DNA of 64,000 nt, taken from the NCBI RefSeq assembly GCF_045037415.1, contig NZ_CP173438.1. One strand, given 5' to 3'. This DNA comes from Escherichia coli (GTDB lineage: Bacteria; Pseudomonadota; Gammaproteobacteria; Enterobacterales; Enterobacteriaceae). Below, piece after piece: positions 22,701 through 29,214 of this stretch. The notes under the pieces were generated by a model. That model saw only the letters and a program-made list of their open reading frames with translations. It was not told the DNA's origin and searched no databases. Position numbers and translations under genes: made by a program. Numbering within the stretch: position 1 is the first letter of the stretch; the number at the start of each line of letters is the position of its first letter.

Positions 22701-23652
22701 CTGCAACATTATCGCTGCTAAGCTGTTCAGCCAAGGAAACGCCCGGGCGATAATTAAACTCAACACCAAAGGTTGTATCGTGAGTGTTGCTCTGTCCTTG
22801 CTTATGCTGTGCAGAAAACTTAATCAGAGGAACTGGTGTATAAGAAATTCCCCCAGTAACTGCGTAAGGGTTTTCCTGCAGGTTATCGCTTCCAAATAAC
22901 CCGACATTTTTACCATAATATTTTTCAAACTGAATAGATGCCCCTAATTGCGGATAAGCAGGTAGCCATCCTTCAGCAGAAAAATCCCAGCCATTTGCAG
23001 GTCTTTCCAGATAATCATCAATATCACGACTGTTCTTCCAGTCAGATAGACCAAAATAGGTATTTACACCAAGCCTGAAATAATCCCTCCAGTACTCAAC
23101 CCCAAAACCTGCACGAGAGTGACTACGACTTAAATCGTAATCATAGAAAACATTCGCACCCAACATTGCGTTATCAGGAGTGAAATGACGAATCCCCAAA
23201 CCAATATTGGTCTGATTTCGGTCATCAGTACGATGTAGTGATGTCTGACTGAATAACACATAATCCTGAGTATCCAGCCATGGATATAAAAAGTCGAATG
23301 ATGAATCCTTCAAGGAAAAAGAATCATCGACATTAAGCTTGATGCGCGCATTGCCATATTGTTGCAACCAGTCGACGACCTCTTTTGTCGCCTGAGTTGA
23401 TAAAGTATTTACAGCAAAACTACTTGCATTATTATTCGCCAGGCTCTGACCTGCACTTGCTGCAAATGAGGCCACTTTATTTGCATGCTCATCGCTGGCA
23501 TAAATTTGCGTAACATCTTTATTACCAGATGATGCAAAACTGTTTGCTGGGATCAAAGAAAGAGAAACTGGAGATAATATCTGGGTAACAATTACCGACC
23601 ATGTAATCGCGCCAGATGCAGTTTTTTTTAACTTTTTATTCACAGTGGTCAT
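19744..23652 (-). CDS. Intimin/invasin-family inverse autotransporter adhesin with multiple bacterial Ig-like (Big) domains
   Basis: 1302 aa; signal-peptide-like N-terminus; region ...LYPWLDTQDYVLFSQTSLHRTDDRNQTNIGLGIRHF...GFGVEYWRDYFRLGVNTYFG...ERPANGWDFSAEGWLPAYPQLGASIQFEKYYG...YDFVERNNNIVLEYKKK closely parallels the recalled intimin beta-barrel domain; then a long Thr/Ser/Val-rich repetitive passenger; AT-rich upstream region. Confidence 0.85.
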   Translation of the reverse strand: MTTVNKKLKKTASGAITWSVIVTQILSPVSLSLIPANSFASSGNKDVTQIYASDEHANKVASFAASAGQSLANNNASSFAVNTLSTQATKEVVDWLQQYGNARIKLNVDDSFSLKDSSFDFLYPWLDTQDYVLFSQTSLHRTDDRNQTNIGLGIRHFTPDNAMLGANVFYDYDLSRSHSRAGFGVEYWRDYFRLGVNTYFGLSDWKNSRDIDDYLERPANGWDFSAEGWLPAYPQLGASIQFEKYYGKNVGLFGSDNLQENPYAVTGGISYTPVPLIKFSAQHKQGQSNTHDTTFGVEFNYRPGVSLAEQLSSDNVAVMREVQNRRYDFVERNNNIVLEYKKKHALKISLPESVQGEGESIIPVTLTINNASGGIKSVQWNDSAFTAAGGKISGNGTSWQITLPAYKSEGVNSWNVGATVQDNRGNVSNYAVMNISVTDSGVSTADSSFTLDGDSSPTISADSQSTYPIVLSLKDSNGKALTGLADDIEMSVEFTADSNSARQRETVTAPSLGAVEEISAGVYRSVLTAGSQAGTVRVTAKVQGKTFTLNIKQAAITDSDVSTADSSFTLDGDSSPTISADSQSTYPIVLSLKDSNGKALTGLADDIEMSVEFTADSNSARQRETVTAPSLGAVEEISAGVYRSVLAAGSQAGTVRVTAKVQGKTFTLSIKQTATTEPDSEVSAVLTAAPAEQVVGYNINLQLAVKDSQGNAITGDNTLSFYALNQAEGVEFGTVTEKDGVYSATVTSKRAGKITIGVKSDSHDFSGVKKEITFIEDRQQVTFSQFEASQNNALADGKQRNMVTVSLADRFGNVVPGYAVTLSLPAGITQVGGEHAVSTDENGNAIFALISSTPGSYVITAHAGSQMSTELTVTFASNMTGASLSLTPESSSLISNIPANGKDAAVLDVQLTNTNASVNGQKIQLITSSEGLSVPTNIVTDSTGHVSVPLTTVKAGEYTVTARVTDGSHSVESGSVKLTFVPDVASAELNMSVSKQEIVADGSENATVNIQLVDANNNAFTGEVDLTITPSTGASLTSSNLQLDAHGQATTQFTASKSGQYTIQAEYVLDGKRITASQNIDAVTDVKGAVLEITSSASSAVVSDTNNLVFTLLLKSKSGEALSGRALNVKTSGPSKYGALVVDKTTVTTDENGQATVSVHGRTVGSYKLTATLNELGSDVSAVKSFSLYADDANGVLTLTKDPGYETNDGSPVGIYARFVDHFGNPLSGTVEFSAGSEDSPDSQRVKMEPATVTLHWTGNAASEFSTYESGYHWIKAKITNSKNTYEKTIRTYVVKLPEKDS
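21628..22350. repeat. Near-perfect tandem direct duplication (2 x 357 bp) inside the adhesin gene, encoding a duplicated 119-aa Ig-like domain
   Basis: gcttaatactgagagtaaatgtttttccctgaacttttgcagttacacg... recurs 357 bp later with a few substitutions; protein shows two almost identical blocks (...STADSSFTLDGDSSPTISADSQSTYPIVLSLKDSNGKALTGLADDIEMSVEFTADSNSARQRETVTAPSLGAVEEISAGVYRSVL...); plus-strand shadow ORFs 21904..22119 and 22261..22446 translate identically. Confidence 0.9.
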
Positions 23653-23901: not shown

Positions 23902-24603
23902 CTATTTCATCGCTCCTTTCAGCCCGAACTTAGCTTTGATTTCTGCGATCTTCGCCAGAGCCTGTGCACGATTTAGAGGCCTACCGCCCATGACAGGAAG
24001 TTGTTTTACTGGTTCAGGTATAGCCTCACCACGGTTAATTCGCGCGGTCATACAGGCCAGTTCATCGGCAGCCTTGCGCCGTAATTCCGCGTCAGTCAAC
24101 GCATTGGCCCGCATGTTCTGATACAGGTTGGTAACCAGCCAGTAGTGCGCGTTTGATTTCCACGGATAAGACTCTGCATCCGGATACAGACCACGCTTCC
24201 GGCAATACTCGTAAACCATATCAACCAGCTCGCTGACGTTTGGCAGCCCGGCGGTAACGGATGCTTCTTCCCGGCACCATGCAACAAACTGCCCGGGTGA
24301 TGGCAGAAATGGTCTATTCTGCCGACGGGCAACACGCATTCCGTCGCTCACCTGCTCCATCGTGGTGATCCCGTTTTCCCGGAAAGCCAGAACCCACTGG
24401 CGGCGGATTTCGTTCAGTTCGTTCTGGTCACGATTAGCCAGGCTCGCCGGGAAAGTTGCCAGTAACTGGCTGAATACACCGTTGATTATCTGCGCTACCT
24501 GCTGTACCTGCGGCTTTTCGTCGTACTGTTCCGGCATGTTGTTGGCGATCCGACGCATCTGCTCACGGTCAAAGTTAATCATCTGTGCGGCGATGTTTTT
24601 CAT
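23902..24603 (-). CDS. P: Replication protein P (DnaB helicase loader)
   Basis: 233 aa, MKNIAAQMINFDREQMRRIANNMPEQYDEKPQVQQVAQIINGVFSQLLATFPASLANRDQNE... near-identical to lambda P. Confidence 0.95.
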   Translation of the reverse strand: MKNIAAQMINFDREQMRRIANNMPEQYDEKPQVQQVAQIINGVFSQLLATFPASLANRDQNELNEIRRQWVLAFRENGITTMEQVSDGMRVARRQNRPFLPSPGQFVAWCREEASVTAGLPNVSELVDMVYEYCRKRGLYPDAESYPWKSNAHYWLVTNLYQNMRANALTDAELRRKAADELACMTARINRGEAIPEPVKQLPVMGGRPLNRAQALAKIAEIKAKFGLKGAMK

Positions 24604-25529
24604 AGATCCACCCCGTAAATCCAGTCTGTGTTTGTCAGGTCGAGTTTTGGTTTGCTAGCTGTCACGCCTGCCTGTTGCTTGTTACGGTTGATTTCGAGTT
24701 GGGTCCACTTGTCGCGGAGTTTGGCCGGACTTAGCACGTTACCGGACCAGAAGTTGTCCTGGCATGCCCAGCGGAACAGCACGCACATGTCGCGGTGGTT
24801 ACGTCCGTCACGTTCACGCATCAGGCGGATATCGTTAGCCCACCCTGCAAAATTCGGTTTTCTGGCTGATGGCGCGATGGTCTTCACCATGTCAAACATC
24901 CACTCTGCGGCGGTCAGGTCTTCTGCTGTCCCCCACTTGCTGCCGCTCTGAATTGCAGCATCCGGTTTCACCACAGGAAGATCGTTTTCTGGTTGGTCAG
25001 AGGATTCGCCAGAATTCTCGGACGAAAAAGGTTTTATATTGTCTTTTGTTAGTTTGTCTTTTGTGTTTACCTGATTCGGGTAAACGCCTTTACCTGATTT
25101 GGGTAAACTTTTTTTACCTGATTCAGGTAAATTTACCTCTTTCAGGTAAACTTTATTTTTCTTACCTGATTCGGGTAATGTTGACCATTCACTGACCACA
25201 TTATTAATGCCGGTATTCCGCCCGCTCTGAATAAAAATCCCACGCTTTACCAGAACACTTTTTGCAGCAGAACACTTGTGCGGCAATATCCCGGTTAATT
25301 CGGAAAGTTGCTCGTTGCTAACCCAATCCAGTTTTTTATTAAAGCCATATGTTTTGCGCATGACAGCCAGAAAGACCAGAAGCTGGTGCTGTGTTAATCC
25401 GGCCAGCATCACAGCTTCCAGCAACTCATTTGCAATGCGCGTATAACCATCATCGAGATCTGCCACGCGCGGCTCCTTTTGTGCCGCATCCGGCACTGGA
25501 AAATTGAATATCTCAGCAGTGTTTGCCAT
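24600..25529 (-). CDS. O: Replication initiator O
   Basis: ORF 24600..25619; start placed at MANTAEIFNFPVPDAAQKEPRVADLDDGYTRIANELLEAV..., by analogy with lambda O (MTNTAKILNF...); ori iterons lie inside the gene; the C-terminal third resembles lambda O. Confidence 0.85.
   Translation of the reverse strand: MANTAEIFNFPVPDAAQKEPRVADLDDGYTRIANELLEAVMLAGLTQHQLLVFLAVMRKTYGFNKKLDWVSNEQLSELTGILPHKCSAAKSVLVKRGIFIQSGRNTGINNVVSEWSTLPESGKKNKVYLKEVNLPESGKKSLPKSGKGVYPNQVNTKDKLTKDNIKPFSSENSGESSDQPENDLPVVKPDAAIQSGSKWGTAEDLTAAEWMFDMVKTIAPSARKPNFAGWANDIRLMRERDGRNHRDMCVLFRWACQDNFWSGNVLSPAKLRDKWTQLEINRNKQQAGVTASKPKLDLTNTDWIYGVDL
25030..25179. other. Replication origin (ori): five roughly 17-bp iterons plus an adjacent AT-rich segment, inside O
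   Basis: Iterons tacctgattcgggtaaa / tacctgatttgggtaaa / tacctgattcaggtaaa / tacctctttcaggtaaa / tacctgattcgggtaat at 25068..25179; AT-rich gttttatattgtcttttgttagtttgtcttttgtgttt at 25030..25067; same layout as lambda ori. Confidence 0.8.
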
Positions 25530-25615
25530 AATTCCTCCCGCAATGAGTGTGTTACGATTTGCACCTGAAAGTCGGTTCTGTTCCAGCAGACCGGCTTTCG
25601 CCATTTCTGAACCTG

Positions 25616-26155
25616 TCATATCGCCCCCAGCATGGTAGTAACCATCGCCATCAATGGACCAGCCAGATCTGGGTCCACACGAAACATCGACACAATACCT
25701 TCACTAATTTCCTTCAGTTTCTGGTGGCGTGGTGCGTTGAGAATGACAGCCTGTTTTGCCTCACTGAGTTCCTTTTCCATTTCAGCCAACCTAGCCATGA
25801 AGCTATCCTGCTCAACCAGGTAACCGCGATATTCCAGCGGTAGTACCGCCAGAATTGCCGGGGTCAGTTCACGCACGTTATTTCGGTATTTTTCAGAATC
25901 GAATTTGTTATCGAGGAAGCGGAACAGCTTCTGGCGTGCACGGCTGACATCATCAGGGAAATCGATGGTGCCGCCGCCCTGCTCCAGATACTCATTCACA
26001 ATGAGTGTGGCAACGACATCCTGATTATCTACAGCCGACCAGGCGCGGACGGCATCACGGATTTTTTCGTGGCCTGGCACCTGTTTTGTTTGAGAACGAT
26101 TTATCACCGCAGTCGGGCTAAATCCGCTAGTCTGTTGGTATGTAAGTGGTTGCAT
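25616..26155 (-). CDS. YdaT-like protein in the cII position (Rac-type CII analogue / putative toxin-family domain)
   Basis: 179 aa between the Cro-like gene and O; segment ...LIVNEYLEQGGGTIDFPDD...RELTPAILAVLPLEYRGYL... resembles the recalled Rac YdaT pattern; assignment unverified. Confidence 0.5.
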   Translation of the reverse strand: MQPLTYQQTSGFSPTAVINRSQTKQVPGHEKIRDAVRAWSAVDNQDVVATLIVNEYLEQGGGTIDFPDDVSRARQKLFRFLDNKFDSEKYRNNVRELTPAILAVLPLEYRGYLVEQDSFMARLAEMEKELSEAKQAVILNAPRHQKLKEISEGIVSMFRVDPDLAGPLMAMVTTMLGAI

Positions 26156-26224
26156 AATTGACTCCTTTAGTTTGAATTGACTGTTAAGTTGATTGCTTAT
26201 TGTTAAAGAGCGTGAAATGGAAAT

Positions 26225-26455
26225 TTAAGCTGCGTTCTTTTCGGTGTGTGGAAACAACTTCGGAAGATCCGGGCGAATCTGGTATGCCTTCACTACTCCA
26301 CCAGTAGCCGTAACAATGCTGCCGACATGTTCAGGGGATACCTTTGCTTTGTTGTGAAGCCACTTATAGACGGCCTGCTGTGAAACTTCGCAAGCAGCGC
26401 CCAGTTTCTTTTGTGAACCAACGATATTGATCGCTGTTTTGATAGCTGGGTTCAT
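26225..26455 (-). CDS. Cro-like HTH regulator (YdaS/Cro family)
   Basis: 76 aa, divergent from the repressor gene; HTH-like segment GSQKKLGAACEVSQQAVYKWL; operator palindromes immediately upstream. Confidence 0.7.
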   Translation of the reverse strand: MNPAIKTAINIVGSQKKLGAACEVSQQAVYKWLHNKAKVSPEHVGSIVTATGGVVKAYQIRPDLPKLFPHTEKNAA

Positions 26456-26559
26456 AACAACCTCCGTGGTTAATTTGAATCAAGATTAAAACTATGGTTG
26501 TTTTTAGTCAACAACCATTTTCGTTTGATGGAATAAAACCTTGGTTGTACATTTGGACT
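26456..26559. promoter_or_regulatory. Right operator/promoter region (OR with divergent PR and PRM)
   Basis: Between divergent cro-like and repressor genes; 25-bp palindrome ATGGTTGTT-tttagtc-AACAACCAT at 26494..26518 and a further TGGTTGT half-site at 26541..26547; the repressor ATG (26560) has no Shine-Dalgarno sequence, consistent with a leaderless PRM transcript as in lambda. Confidence 0.6.
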
Positions 26560-27249
26560 ATGAAAACAACACTCTCAGAAAGACTTAAAGAAGCCAGATT
26601 AGCGCGAGGCCTTACACAAAAGGCGCTTGGGGATTTGGTCGGGGTTAGCCAGGCTGCTATTCAGAAAATCGAAACAGGGAAAGCTAATCAAACAACTAAA
26701 ATCGTGGAGATCGCGAACGCTTTGGGTGTGCGCGCAGAATGGTTATCTTCTGGCGTTGGAAATATGTCAGACAGTACAGTGCAACCAATACAATCAACTG
26801 TCAGCCATTCCAAATACTTCAAGATTGACGTTCTTGATATAGAAGTCAGTGCTGGGCCGGGAGTCATCAACCGTGAGTTTGTAGAAGTTCTACGCTCGGT
26901 TGAGTACTCGTTTGACGATGCTCGTCACATGTTCGATGGTAGGAAGGCGGAAAATATCCGCATCATTAACGTGCGTGGTGACAGCATGTCAGGAACGATC
27001 GAACCAGGTGATCTGCTGTTCGTTGATATCACAGTTAAATCTTTCGACGGTGATGGTATCTATGCGTTTCTGTACGACGACACAGCCCATGTAAAGCGCC
27101 TGCAAATGATGAAGGATAAGCTGCTGGTCATCTCTGATAACAAAAGCTACTCACCGTGGGACCCGATCGAGAAAGACGAGATGAACCGGGTGTTCATCTT
27201 CGGTAAGGTTATTGGGAGCATGCCGCAGACATATAGGAAGCATGGGTAG
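26560..27249 (+). CDS. CI-type prophage repressor (N-terminal XRE HTH, C-terminal S24/LexA-like peptidase domain)
   Basis: ORF 26494..27249; start at MKTTLSERLKEARLARGLTQKALGDLVGVSQAAIQKIETGK (HTH); C-terminal ...NVRGDSMSGTIEPGDLLFVD...HVKRL... has the Ser/Lys autocleavage dyad context. Confidence 0.85.
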   Translation: MKTTLSERLKEARLARGLTQKALGDLVGVSQAAIQKIETGKANQTTKIVEIANALGVRAEWLSSGVGNMSDSTVQPIQSTVSHSKYFKIDVLDIEVSAGPGVINREFVEVLRSVEYSFDDARHMFDGRKAENIRIINVRGDSMSGTIEPGDLLFVDITVKSFDGDGIYAFLYDDTAHVKRLQMMKDKLLVISDNKSYSPWDPIEKDEMNRVFIFGKVIGSMPQTYRKHG

Positions 27250-27370
27250 TACCAATTAAAAATTATCAACTGGGCATTGTGCTCATTCAGTAAAGAACTA
27301 ATTCCTATCTTTGCTCTAGGTAGTAATATTAAGCCACCGCAATAATATCTTTACCTAACGGCGTAAGAAT

Positions 27371-27400
27371 CCCGGTCACCGTGCCGGGTTTTCTTTTGCC
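27371..27400 (+). terminator. Candidate rho-independent terminator downstream of the repressor gene
   Basis: cccggtcaccgtgccggg hairpin followed by ttttctttt. Confidence 0.45.
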
Positions 27401-27489
27401 CTCCCCTCATCACACACACCGTTAAAAAAACCACCATAACCTCGCTTCAGTTATCGCTATGCGATTCAAGTCACAAAATAAATCCATCC

Positions 27490-27570
27490 TAAATACAACC
27501 AGTTATATCTAAAACAACCAATAAAACAACTTTTGTTGTTGACGATAAAACAACTATAGTTTTAAATAAG
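27490..27570 (+). promoter_or_regulatory. Left operator/promoter region (OL/pL-like)
   Basis: Clustered ACAAC/GTTGT half-sites, including the palindrome AACAACttttGTTGTT (27525..27540), sharing the half-site with OR; TTGACG -35-like hexamer at 27539..27544 with a TTAAAT -10 candidate 18 nt downstream; would drive the gam-bet-exo-xis-int strand. Confidence 0.45.
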
Positions 27571-27844
27571 TTCATCGCAACAACACAACGATACGGCAAC
27601 TACCTGATTCACCGTTGCGATGACCGCTTAGATCCGCAGTTTGAATTTCAGCAGGCTTCGGGGAGTGCGAGGGGTGAAACGGACGCGTGAACGTCGGTGT
27701 GACCAGCTGAAATTAACTCAACATTTCATACCTTAGTCGCTTCAACGAGGCGGCTTAGTTATGACAACCGGCGGCCATCCACCGCCTGAATACGCGCAGA
27801 AGTCTCTATATGTTCAGCAGCCCAGCTTACGGGCAGGAGTTTTT

Positions 27845-28051
27845 ATGGTTCATCAACATTACGGAACGCAGACCGTTAATCGCGGTGCGGTCATGCCAGG
27901 AATGCTGGTCAAACACAAAGATGGTACCTGGACTGCATCAGCTAATTTACGCGGACGGCTTTATCTGCATCGCGGCATCGAGCGCACTTATACCCGTGAT
28001 TTGCTCGTGGAAGTTTTTCTCGACGGACGCGGCAACGGCCTGAATCACTAA
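27845..28051 (+). CDS. Hypothetical small early-left-operon protein (kil/cIII position)
   Basis: ATG at 27845 preceded by caggag; 68 aa [68 protein letters not shown]; an alternative upstream ATG at 27761 lacks a Shine-Dalgarno sequence; no homolog recognised. Confidence 0.4.
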
Positions 28052-28126
28052 TCCCCTTTCCTGTTTACCTAATCAGCCCGGCATTTCGCAGGCGATATTT
28101 TCACAGCCATTTTCAGGAGTTCAGCC

Positions 28127-28423
28127 ATGAACGCTTATTACATTCAGGATCGTCTTGAGGCTCAAAGCTGGGCGCGTCACTACCAGCAGATCGCCCGTGA
28201 AGAGAAAGAGGCAGAACTGGCAGACGACATGGAAAAAGGTCTTCCACAGCACCTGTTTGAATCACTCTGCATCGATCATTTGCAACGCTGCGGGGCCAGC
28301 AAAAAAGCCATTACCCGTGCGTTTGATGACGATGTTGAGTTTCAGGAGCGCATGGCAGAACACATCCGGTACATGGTTGAAACCATTGCTCACCACCATG
28401 TTGATATTGATTCAGAGGTATAA
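28127..28423 (+). CDS. gam: Gam, RecBCD inhibitor (short GamS form)
   Basis: 98 aa, [98 protein letters not shown] matches lambda Gam. Confidence 0.9.
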
Positions 28424-28428
28424 AACGG

Positions 28429-29214
28429 ATGAGTACAGCACTCGCAACGCTGGCTGGGAAGCTGGCTGAACGTGTCGGCATGGATTCTGTCGACCCACAG
28501 GAACTGATCACCACTCTTCGTCAGACGGCATTTAAAGGTGATGCCAGCGATGCGCAGTTCATCGCATTGCTGATCGTCGCCAACCAGTACGGCCTTAATC
28601 CGTGGACGAAAGAAATTTACGCCTTCCCTGATAAGCAGAACGGCATCGTTCCGGTGGTGGGCGTTGATGGCTGGTCCCGCATCATCAATGAAAACCAGCA
28701 GTTTGATGGCATGGACTTTGAGCAGGACAATGAATCATGTACGTGCCGGATTTACCGCAAAGACCGCAATCATCCGATCTGCGTTACCGAATGGATGGAT
28801 GAATGCCGCCGCGAACCATTCAAAACTCGCGAAGGCAGAGAAATCACGGGGCCGTGGCAGTCGCATCCCAAACGGATGTTACGGCATAAAGCCATGATTC
28901 AGTGTGCCCGTCTGGCCTTCGGATTTGCTGGTATCTATGACAAGGATGAAGCCGAGCGCATTGTCGAAAATACTGCATACACTGCGGAACGTCAGCCGGA
29001 ACGCGACATCACTCCGGTTAACGATGAAACCATGCAGGAGATTAACACTCTGCTGATTGCCCTGGACAAAACATGGGATGACGACTTATTGCCGCTCTGT
29101 TCCCAGATATTTCGCCGCGACATTCGCGCATCGTCAGAACTGACACAGGCCGAAGCAGTGAAAGCTCTTGGATTCCTGAAACAGAAAGCCACTGAGCAGA
29201 AGGTGGCAGCATGA
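28429..29214 (+). CDS. bet: Bet (Red-beta) single-strand annealing recombinase
   Basis: 261 aa, [72 protein letters not shown]... essentially identical to lambda Bet. Confidence 0.95.

Follow-up and report, generated by a model that had tools for sequence, protein, structure and literature searches.

We examined a 64-kb window of Escherichia coli DNA (hereafter the window), concentrating on the immunity region at positions 25616–27249 and its flanks. The early region is lambdoid and reads from right to left, as judged from the list of open reading frames (ORFs) and from the sequence itself: the gene for a 179-aa protein follows a YdaS/Cro-like gene, precedes the replication genes, and is divergent from the repressor gene cI. 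The genes are laid out as follows.

24603..23902, minus strand: P (ORF listing)
ORF from 25619, conserved start 25529, minus strand: O (ORF listing)
26155..25616, minus strand: predicted cII of the phi80 type (YdaT family), 179 aa (ORF listing, Pfam, PHROG)
26455..26225, minus strand: cro-like gene of the YdaS family, 76 aa (ORF listing, Pfam, PHROG)
26560..27249, plus strand: cI repressor gene, 229 aa (ORF listing, Pfam, RefSeq start)
beyond the operator/promoter cluster at ~27495–27567, plus strand: kil, gam, bet, and exo (ORF listing)

An earlier, sequence-only reading of this DNA had placed here a non-lambda immunity region with a LexA-like CI, a Cro-like helix-turn-helix (HTH) protein, and, in the slot of cII, a YdaT-like protein. 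All three proteins were recovered with backing from Pfam, and the non-lambda character of the immunity is supported. We consider it highly probable that the region is the lysis/lysogeny switch of a very common E. coli lambdoid prophage, combining a CI of the 434 and S24 types acting on 14-bp dyads, a Cro of the YdaS family, and a phi80-type CII. The segment from 25500 to 27700 is 100% identical to Escherichia phage PhiR34_1, a complete phage genome deposited with E. coli MG1655 as host, whose record names cI, Cro, cII, and O. Among 5,426 complete E. coli genomes, 1,047 contained the cro-cI-OL segment at a coverage of at least 80%, and the operator region OR alone was present in 1,520; the immunity type thus occurs in about one in every four to five of these genomes. 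The earlier reading described something real and described it mostly correctly, although the region is an ordinary one and the point that it treated as centrally open was already known.

The repressor contains an HTH_3 domain (1.2e-12) and a Peptidase_S24 domain (2.3e-18) in Pfam, and the nearest solved structure to its N-terminal domain is that of the 434 repressor, with a gapless alignment (phmmer, 1per/2or1, E value 4.5e-9). The elements of self-cleavage can be read from the sequence, with a candidate site at Ala98–Gly99, Ser142 in GDSM, and Lys179 in VKRL. By these similarities, CI is a repressor with an N-terminal 434-type HTH and a C-terminal S24 (LexA-like) autopeptidase, for which cleavage is predicted.

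The half-site ACAAC/GTTGT, proposed by the earlier reading as the mark of the operators, occurred 11 times within OR and OL, which together span 225 bp (0.47 expected, P about 4e-12), and a search across the 64 kb gave OR and OL as the two densest spots. When the half-sites were combined into the dyad ACAAC-N4-GTTGT and at most one mismatch was allowed, six sites were found in 64 kb, five of them inside OR or OL (26457–26470, 26488–26501, 26535–26548, 27526–27539, and 27550–27563). With one further site at two mismatches and two unpaired half-sites, the candidate operator elements are the following.

26457..26470: fourth dyad-like site, ACAACCTCCGTGGT, one mismatch, over the cro Shine-Dalgarno (SD) sequence, function uncertain
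26488..26501: OR1 candidate, AAAACTATGGTTGT, one mismatch, centre −65.5 from the cI ATG, overlapping the spacer and the −10 edge of PR
26511..26524: OR2 candidate, ACAACCATTTTCGT, two mismatches, centre −42.5 from the cI ATG, abutting the −35 elements of PR and PRM
26535..26548: OR3 candidate, AAAACCTTGGTTGT, one mismatch, centre −18.5 from the cI ATG, within the PRM spacer
27495..27520, plus strand: two ACAACCA half-sites without a dyad partner, starting at 27495 and 27514 (motif search)
27526..27539: OL2 candidate, ACAACTTTTGTTGT, perfect dyad with no mismatches (dyad search)
27550..27563: OL1 candidate, ACAACTATAGTTTT, one mismatch (dyad search)

The three OR sites, starting at 26488, 26511, and 26535, are spaced by 23 and 24 bp, and their centres take the same positions as those of lambda OR1, OR2, and OR3 relative to the PRM start. 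The two OL sites lie 24 bp apart and straddle the sequence TTGACG-17-TTAAAT. OR1 and OR3 share an 18-nt direct repeat, 47 bp apart. OR1 and OR2 were invariant in four variants, and in a variant whose OR is 84.5% identical, OR3 differed only in its central N4 while the flanks varied. The right half of the fourth dyad, over the cro SD, degrades in a variant. Searches of the literature with the operator strings, phage names, and protein accessions returned no description of the operators of this immunity, and the operator sequences and the immunity specificity are apparently undescribed.

Promoter-like sequences, read by hand, accompany the candidate operators.

26483..26510, minus strand: PR-like promoter, TTGACT (26510 to 26505), 17 nt, TAATCT (26488 to 26483)
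26525..26553, plus strand: PRM-like promoter, TTGATG (26525–26530), 17 nt, TACATT (26548–26553)
27526..27567, plus strand: core of PL and OL, −35 TTGACG (27539–27544), −10 TTAAAT (27562–27567)

The PR-like region resembles the PL region over about 35 bp. The predicted PRM bears on the translation start of cI, for which the earlier reading had noted an ATG devoid of a Shine-Dalgarno sequence, consistent with a leaderless PRM transcript. This observation holds: RefSeq places the start at 26560 as well, giving a product of 229 aa, the 25 nt on the 5' side of the ATG contain no SD-like word, and the computed duplex with the anti-SD is −3.0 kcal/mol for cI versus −10.2 for cro, −8.2 for cII, and −10.3 for O. 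The TACATT of the −10 element is followed by 6 nt and then by the cI ATG, whose A (26560) lies 7 nt past the −10 element. Because TACATT ends 6 nt before the ATG, transcription from PRM would be expected to start on the A of the ATG, and the data fit a cI mRNA that is predicted to be leaderless. In the variant with 84.5% OR identity, the −10 element retains the form TAnnnT (TAGATT) and the 6-nt gap to the ATG is kept, with its bases changed. The paaR2 repressor gene of CP-933P was shown to be leaderless by 5'RACE (PMC8630535). A start at the upstream ATG at 26494, annotated in PhiR34_1, was rejected: it has no SD, the 22 extra residues would overlap OR1 and OR2, and both the RefSeq start and the HTH alignment begin at 26560.

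The 76-aa Cro-like protein matches YdaS_toxin in Pfam (PF15943, 4.9e-17) and more weakly P22_Cro (1.2e-4), and it belongs to the transcriptional repressors of PHROG_35. Its gene has a strong SD, GGAGGT, and is the first gene of the PR operon, divergent from cI.

The 179-aa protein was suspected of resembling YdaT, and the profile search bears this out, with a match to YdaT_toxin (PF06254, independent E value 1.4e-29, residues 67–154) and no match to the lambda-CII family in Pfam or NCBIfam. It also matches PHROG_163, "CII-like transcriptional activator" (6e-67), and, by phmmer, the sequence of 8bt1 (7e-4). In tblastn searches the protein aligned along its whole length with the product of the deposited cII gene of phage phi80 (66% identity) and was 51–67% identical to the cII of mEp237, HK225, and HK639. 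An AlphaFold (AF2) monomer model built on 42 relatives had a mean predicted local distance difference test score of 85 and contained eight helices, with residues 1–24 disordered; its only credible matches in the Protein Data Bank were the YdaT crystal structures 8bt1 and 3c4r (probability 1.0, template-modeling score 0.69–0.71, root mean square deviation 3.3–3.8 Å). The model suggests a POU-like HTH domain followed by long C-terminal helices. The motif QKLFRFL of the recognition helix aligns with QKIFRWL of CP-933P YdaT, and residues F78 and R79 are nearly invariant among 42 sequences. On the strength of these similarities, we assign the 179-aa protein as a phi80-type CII of the YdaT family, a known type of regulator and not a toxin.

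For the YdaT family, the choice between a toxin–antitoxin pair and Cro and CII analogues has largely been answered in the literature. Casjens and Jobling assigned YdaS and YdaT as the analogues of Cro and CII (PMC5917428). Work by Jurenas et al. demonstrated that a PRE-like promoter is activated by the YdaT of CP-933P, that the YdaS/YdaT pair of this prophage is not a toxin–antitoxin system, and that YdaT is homologous to phi80 CII (PMC8630535). The crystal structure of YdaT and its binding site, TTGATT-N6-AATCAA, have been published (PMC9986795). The YdaT of Rac binds an ATGATT-N6-AATCAA site that covers the start codon of its gene and from there switches on a reverse promoter lying within ydaS, at a distance of about 190 bp; it also controls the host gene rcsA, and its overexpression is toxic (PMC11879457). 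The earlier view of the 179-aa protein's role as open is therefore out of date, as YdaT relatives are published CII equivalents and the protein is 66% identical to phi80 cII.

Two box-like sites lie close to the predicted cII, and a hairpin lies downstream of it.

25566..25600, plus strand: hairpin of an oop/M3-like antisense RNA (alignment with the annotated phi80 M3 RNA and the HK639 M3-like RNA)
26090..26107: candidate CII (YdaT-type) box, TTGAGAACGATTTATCAC, matching TTGATW-N6-WATCAA at 10 of 12 positions, in cII codons 17–22
26189..26206: weak second site resembling the box, TTGATTGCTTATTGTTAA, 10 of 12 positions, in the cro-cII spacer, low confidence

The first of the boxes, at +49, was, in each of the 13 related loci, the best or joint-best match in the ±300 bp around the cII ATG, with 12 of 12 matching positions in phage ENT1, 11 in mEp237 and ST13, and 10 in the window. 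It lies in the part of the gene encoding the disordered N-terminal extension, a segment that classical YdaT proteins lack. The Ile codon within the box is always ATA or ATT, and this constancy hints at constraint at the DNA level, confounded by coding conservation. The site in the spacer is not conserved in phages pairing the same cII with another cro. On the cI strand, the only relaxed promoter-like site between the +49 box and OR is a weak TTCACT-17-AACAAT at 26289–26317, ~190 bp from the box, as in Rac. We regard the +49 box and this promoter as candidates only for a CII site and PRE. A direct repeat, AATTGACT (26156/26175), was also considered as a CII site and rejected: it is missing in phages with a 96.6% identical cII and another cro, where similarity stops exactly at the cII ATG. 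The oop/M3-like hairpin keeps its stem through differing sequences, folds at −26 kcal/mol (z −2.6), and lies within the 86 bp that separate the cII stop from the conserved start of O (25529). The O frame is readable from 25619, the start given by PhiR34_1 and RefSeq, but the start that is conserved and has a strong SD (GGAGG) is at 25529, and the match to PHROG covers the protein from residue 31 onward.

A single exact copy of TTGATT-N6-AATCAA is present in the 64 kb; it lies at 15841–15858, upstream of ninB, and overlaps the −35 element of a promoter-like TTGATT-17-CATAAT (15830–15858) pointing into the nin and Q genes. The half-sites are kept and the spacer varies in phages 82, HK639, KO-TP1, CobraSix, and phi80, the phi80 form being the symmetric TTGATA...TATCAA, and similarity stops right after the box. 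Within the phage database this box appeared to be linked without exception to a YdaT-type cII, but a prophage that combines a lambda-type CII with the same perfect box refuted an exclusive link. The leader between the promoter-like site and ninB (15700–15830, minus strand) contains a hairpin CACCGGAG...CTCCGGTG, whose counterpart in the record of phage 82 is labelled a "possible regulator-binding site." In the same leader, the stretch CGCAGGTGCATTTCTGCATCTGTGA is identical in six phages and has a 9-bp stem ATGCAGAAA/TTTCTGCAT; the leader has no match in Rfam.

The sequence-only reading took a "25-bp perfect palindrome" in OR as the operator, with ACAACCA/TGGTTGT half-sites ~17 bp apart and further copies in OL. 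The repeat at 26494–26518 in fact consists of 9-nt arms, ATGGTTGTT/AACAACCAT, around an asymmetric 7-nt centre, TTTAGTC, and the operator unit appears to have been misassigned. The arms are perfectly complementary, the entire 25 bp is invariant in four variants, and five of the 11 copies of ACAACCA in the window lie in OR plus OL, all of which would suit a 25-bp operator. Yet the pair GTTGT...ACAAC is one base wider at OL (starts 27535/27550 versus 26497/26511), the centres of its half-sites are 17 bp apart and would face different sides of the helix, and the centre of the repeat is the −35 element of PR (AGTCAA). The DNA-binding domain of CI is, moreover, closest to the 434 repressor, whose operator is the 14-bp site ACAA-N6-TTGT. 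We thus regard the 25-bp operator as unlikely. Because the N4 spacing is constant across OR and OL, with a perfect copy at 27526–27539, while the outer gap is not, the operator unit is more likely the 14-bp dyad ACAAC-N4-GTTGT, similar to the 434 operator, repeated at a spacing of 23 and 24 bp; a dyad of this kind fits the 434 homology of CI. In that case the 25-bp repeat would not be a single operator but would comprise the −35 element of PR together with the halves of OR1 and OR2 that face each other.

The role of the 179-aa protein can likewise be read in other ways. That the cro-like gene and its neighbour form a YdaS/YdaT toxin–antitoxin-like pair and not regulators of lysis and lysogeny is suggested by the Pfam names, still "YdaS_toxin" and "YdaT_toxin," and by the toxicity of overexpressed Rac YdaT. 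We find this scarcely credible: the published experiments on relatives revealed DNA binding and promoter activation by YdaT and no toxin–antitoxin behavior, the order cI, cro, 179-aa gene, O is that of a phage deposited as a complete genome, the protein is predicted to have an HTH fold, and the identity to the phi80 cII product speaks for a regulator. A different possibility is that the protein mainly regulates other targets, the nin/Q promoter or host genes, and not chiefly the establishment of cI. The only exact YdaT box of the window overlaps a −35 element upstream of ninB and is kept with a free spacer in six phages, Rac YdaT controls rcsA, and no clear box was found at a recognizable PRE. 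However, the same ninB box is present in a prophage that has a lambda-type CII and whose early genes, from cro to Q, include no annotated YdaT-family member, the YdaT of Rac and CP-933P activates a reverse promoter feeding the repressor gene, and the cII of phi80 is so named in the deposited records of that phage, making a chief role elsewhere very unlikely. We also consider it improbable that the ~27-codon N-terminal extension of phi80-type CII mainly carries the protein's own binding dyad and that the box upstream of ninB is a second target by which CII-type regulators throttle nin/Q, a counterpart of lambda paQ.

Several observations weigh against the assignment of the region as a switch of CI on 14-bp dyads and a phi80-type CII. 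The exact YdaT box is absent near cII, both in the window and in the 12 phi80-type loci that were fetched, and the lambda-type TTGC-N6-TTGC at one mismatch or less is absent between 23510 and 28566. The right half of OR2 is poor (TTCGT), and the two ACAACCA half-sites of OL and the site at the cro SD misfit a simple scheme of three operators. A strict scan for the sigma-70 consensus called none of PR, PL, and PRM, so the promoters called by hand draw on position and conservation; the −10 element of PR, TAATCT, matches the consensus at just 3 of 6 positions.

Comparison of related phages and prophages points to modular exchange of the genes. Phages 4C10 and PhiR30_1 have the same cII (95–97% identical) with a different cro and a different N-terminal domain of CI. 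The prophage of E. coli KCJ3K291 has a near-identical OR and CI N-terminal domain, a Cro with 79% identity, a different C-terminal domain of CI, and a 73-aa lambda-type CII in the slot of the YdaT-type one. As a near-identical module of cro, OR, and the CI N-terminal domain carries a lambda-type CII in the same slot, the two CII types may be interchangeable cassettes with equivalent function, for which these comparisons provide indirect support.

We infer that CI binds ACAAC-N4-GTTGT at three sites in OR (26488–26548) and at least two in OL (27526–27563). By analogy with lambda, CI on OR1 and OR2 would shut PR and hence cro, cII, and O, and it would stimulate PRM from the site centred near −42, with OR3 limiting PRM; the PRM transcript would begin at the A of the cI ATG and be leaderless. 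The same analogy predicts that the YdaS-family protein has the part of Cro at these operators and that RecA-stimulated self-cleavage of CI at Ala98–Gly99 induces the prophage. After infection, CII made from PR would activate leftward transcription that passes through cro and establishes cI expression, as in Rac and CP-933P.

On the PL side, cI is followed by a predicted terminator.

27371..27398, plus strand: intrinsic terminator 3' of cI, CCCGGTCACCGTGCCGGG then TTTTCTTTTG (terminator scan)

The PL leader of ~270 nt contains a 10-bp perfect stem (27572–27581/27614–27623) and runs into kil and then gam (window 27570–28130). The kil frame, 27761/27845–28051, is supported by PHROG_294; PhiR34_1 annotates a different, unsupported frame at 27810–28043. 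No N- or cIII-like ORF was found in the stretch from PL to gam, a 560-bp gap whose two ORFs of 40 aa or longer were profiled. An antiterminator like HK639 putL was considered on the 3' side of PL and rejected, with no convincing alignment and a fold no better than shuffled sequences (z −1.2). The Rfam scan of 25000–29000 and 15500–16150 gave chance-level matches only.

Other observations concern the cro leader and the nin side. The sequence GTGGTTAATTTGAATCAA in the cro leader (26466–26483) agrees with the YdaT box in 10 of its 12 positions; in this small sample, two variants of the same immunity change the spacer only and the variant with a lambda-type CII changes both halves. An esterase gene (16124–17155, opposite strand) adjoins the box upstream of ninB. 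The interval from P to the nin genes contains transposase genes (17182–19598) and a gene for a 1,302-aa inverse-autotransporter (intimin/invasin-like) adhesin (19744–23652), in place of which PhiR34_1 has ren and other small genes. A single exact repeat of the lambda CII type, TTGCAATATCTTGC, occurs at 13597–13610, antisense within the Q-like gene (13586–14275), at the place of paQ in lambda; chance alone would give about two exact matches in 64 kb, and the phage has no lambda-type CII.

A map of operators and promoters would help to predict superinfection immunity and SOS inducibility of a very common prophage, and PhiR34_1 provides a natural viable phage for studying the YdaT-type CII, so far characterized mainly in defective prophages. 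Conceptually the region offers nothing new, as it is a lambda switch assembled from known alternative modules. The closest counterpart of its CII is found in phi80 and, within the same subgroup of PHROG_163, in HK639, HK225, and mEp237, where cII likewise lies between the cro analogue and a replication gene and its product shares with the 179-aa protein the ~27-residue N-terminal extension and a hydrophobic C-terminal tail. Phi80 and HK639 also have the M3/oop-like RNA hairpin just downstream of cII. The likeness ends there: the CI of phi80 is just 24% identical, its Cro is barely alignable, and its operators are unrelated; only the cII module is shared.

The YdaT proteins of CP-933P (8bt1), E. 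coli O6 (3c4r), and Rac belong to the same Pfam family, have the same fold and the motif QK(I/L)FR(W/F)L, and are partnered by a Cro of the YdaS family. They are about 26–33% identical to the 179-aa protein and lack its N- and C-terminal extensions, their repressors PaaR2 and RacR have no S24 domain, and their prophages are defective. The exact box of CP-933P and Rac, TTGATT/ATGATT-N6-AATCAA, is not found at the cII of the window, where the best match is the 10 of 12 positions at +49. The 434 repressor and the window CI both have the Gln at the start of the recognition helix, and the window dyad likewise begins with ACAA and ends with TTGT. Their domains are about 40% identical, residues of the recognition helix differ between them (QAAIQK against QQSIEQ), the half-site of the window extends to ACAAC, and the immunity is a different one. 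With the immunity region of lambda itself, the window shares the gene order, a tripartite OR with 23/24-bp spacing, a cI start without SD, a repressor of the S24 type, and an antisense RNA after cII; it differs in having a Cro and a CII without sequence similarity to those of lambda, no TTGC-N6-TTGC near cII, and no rexAB.

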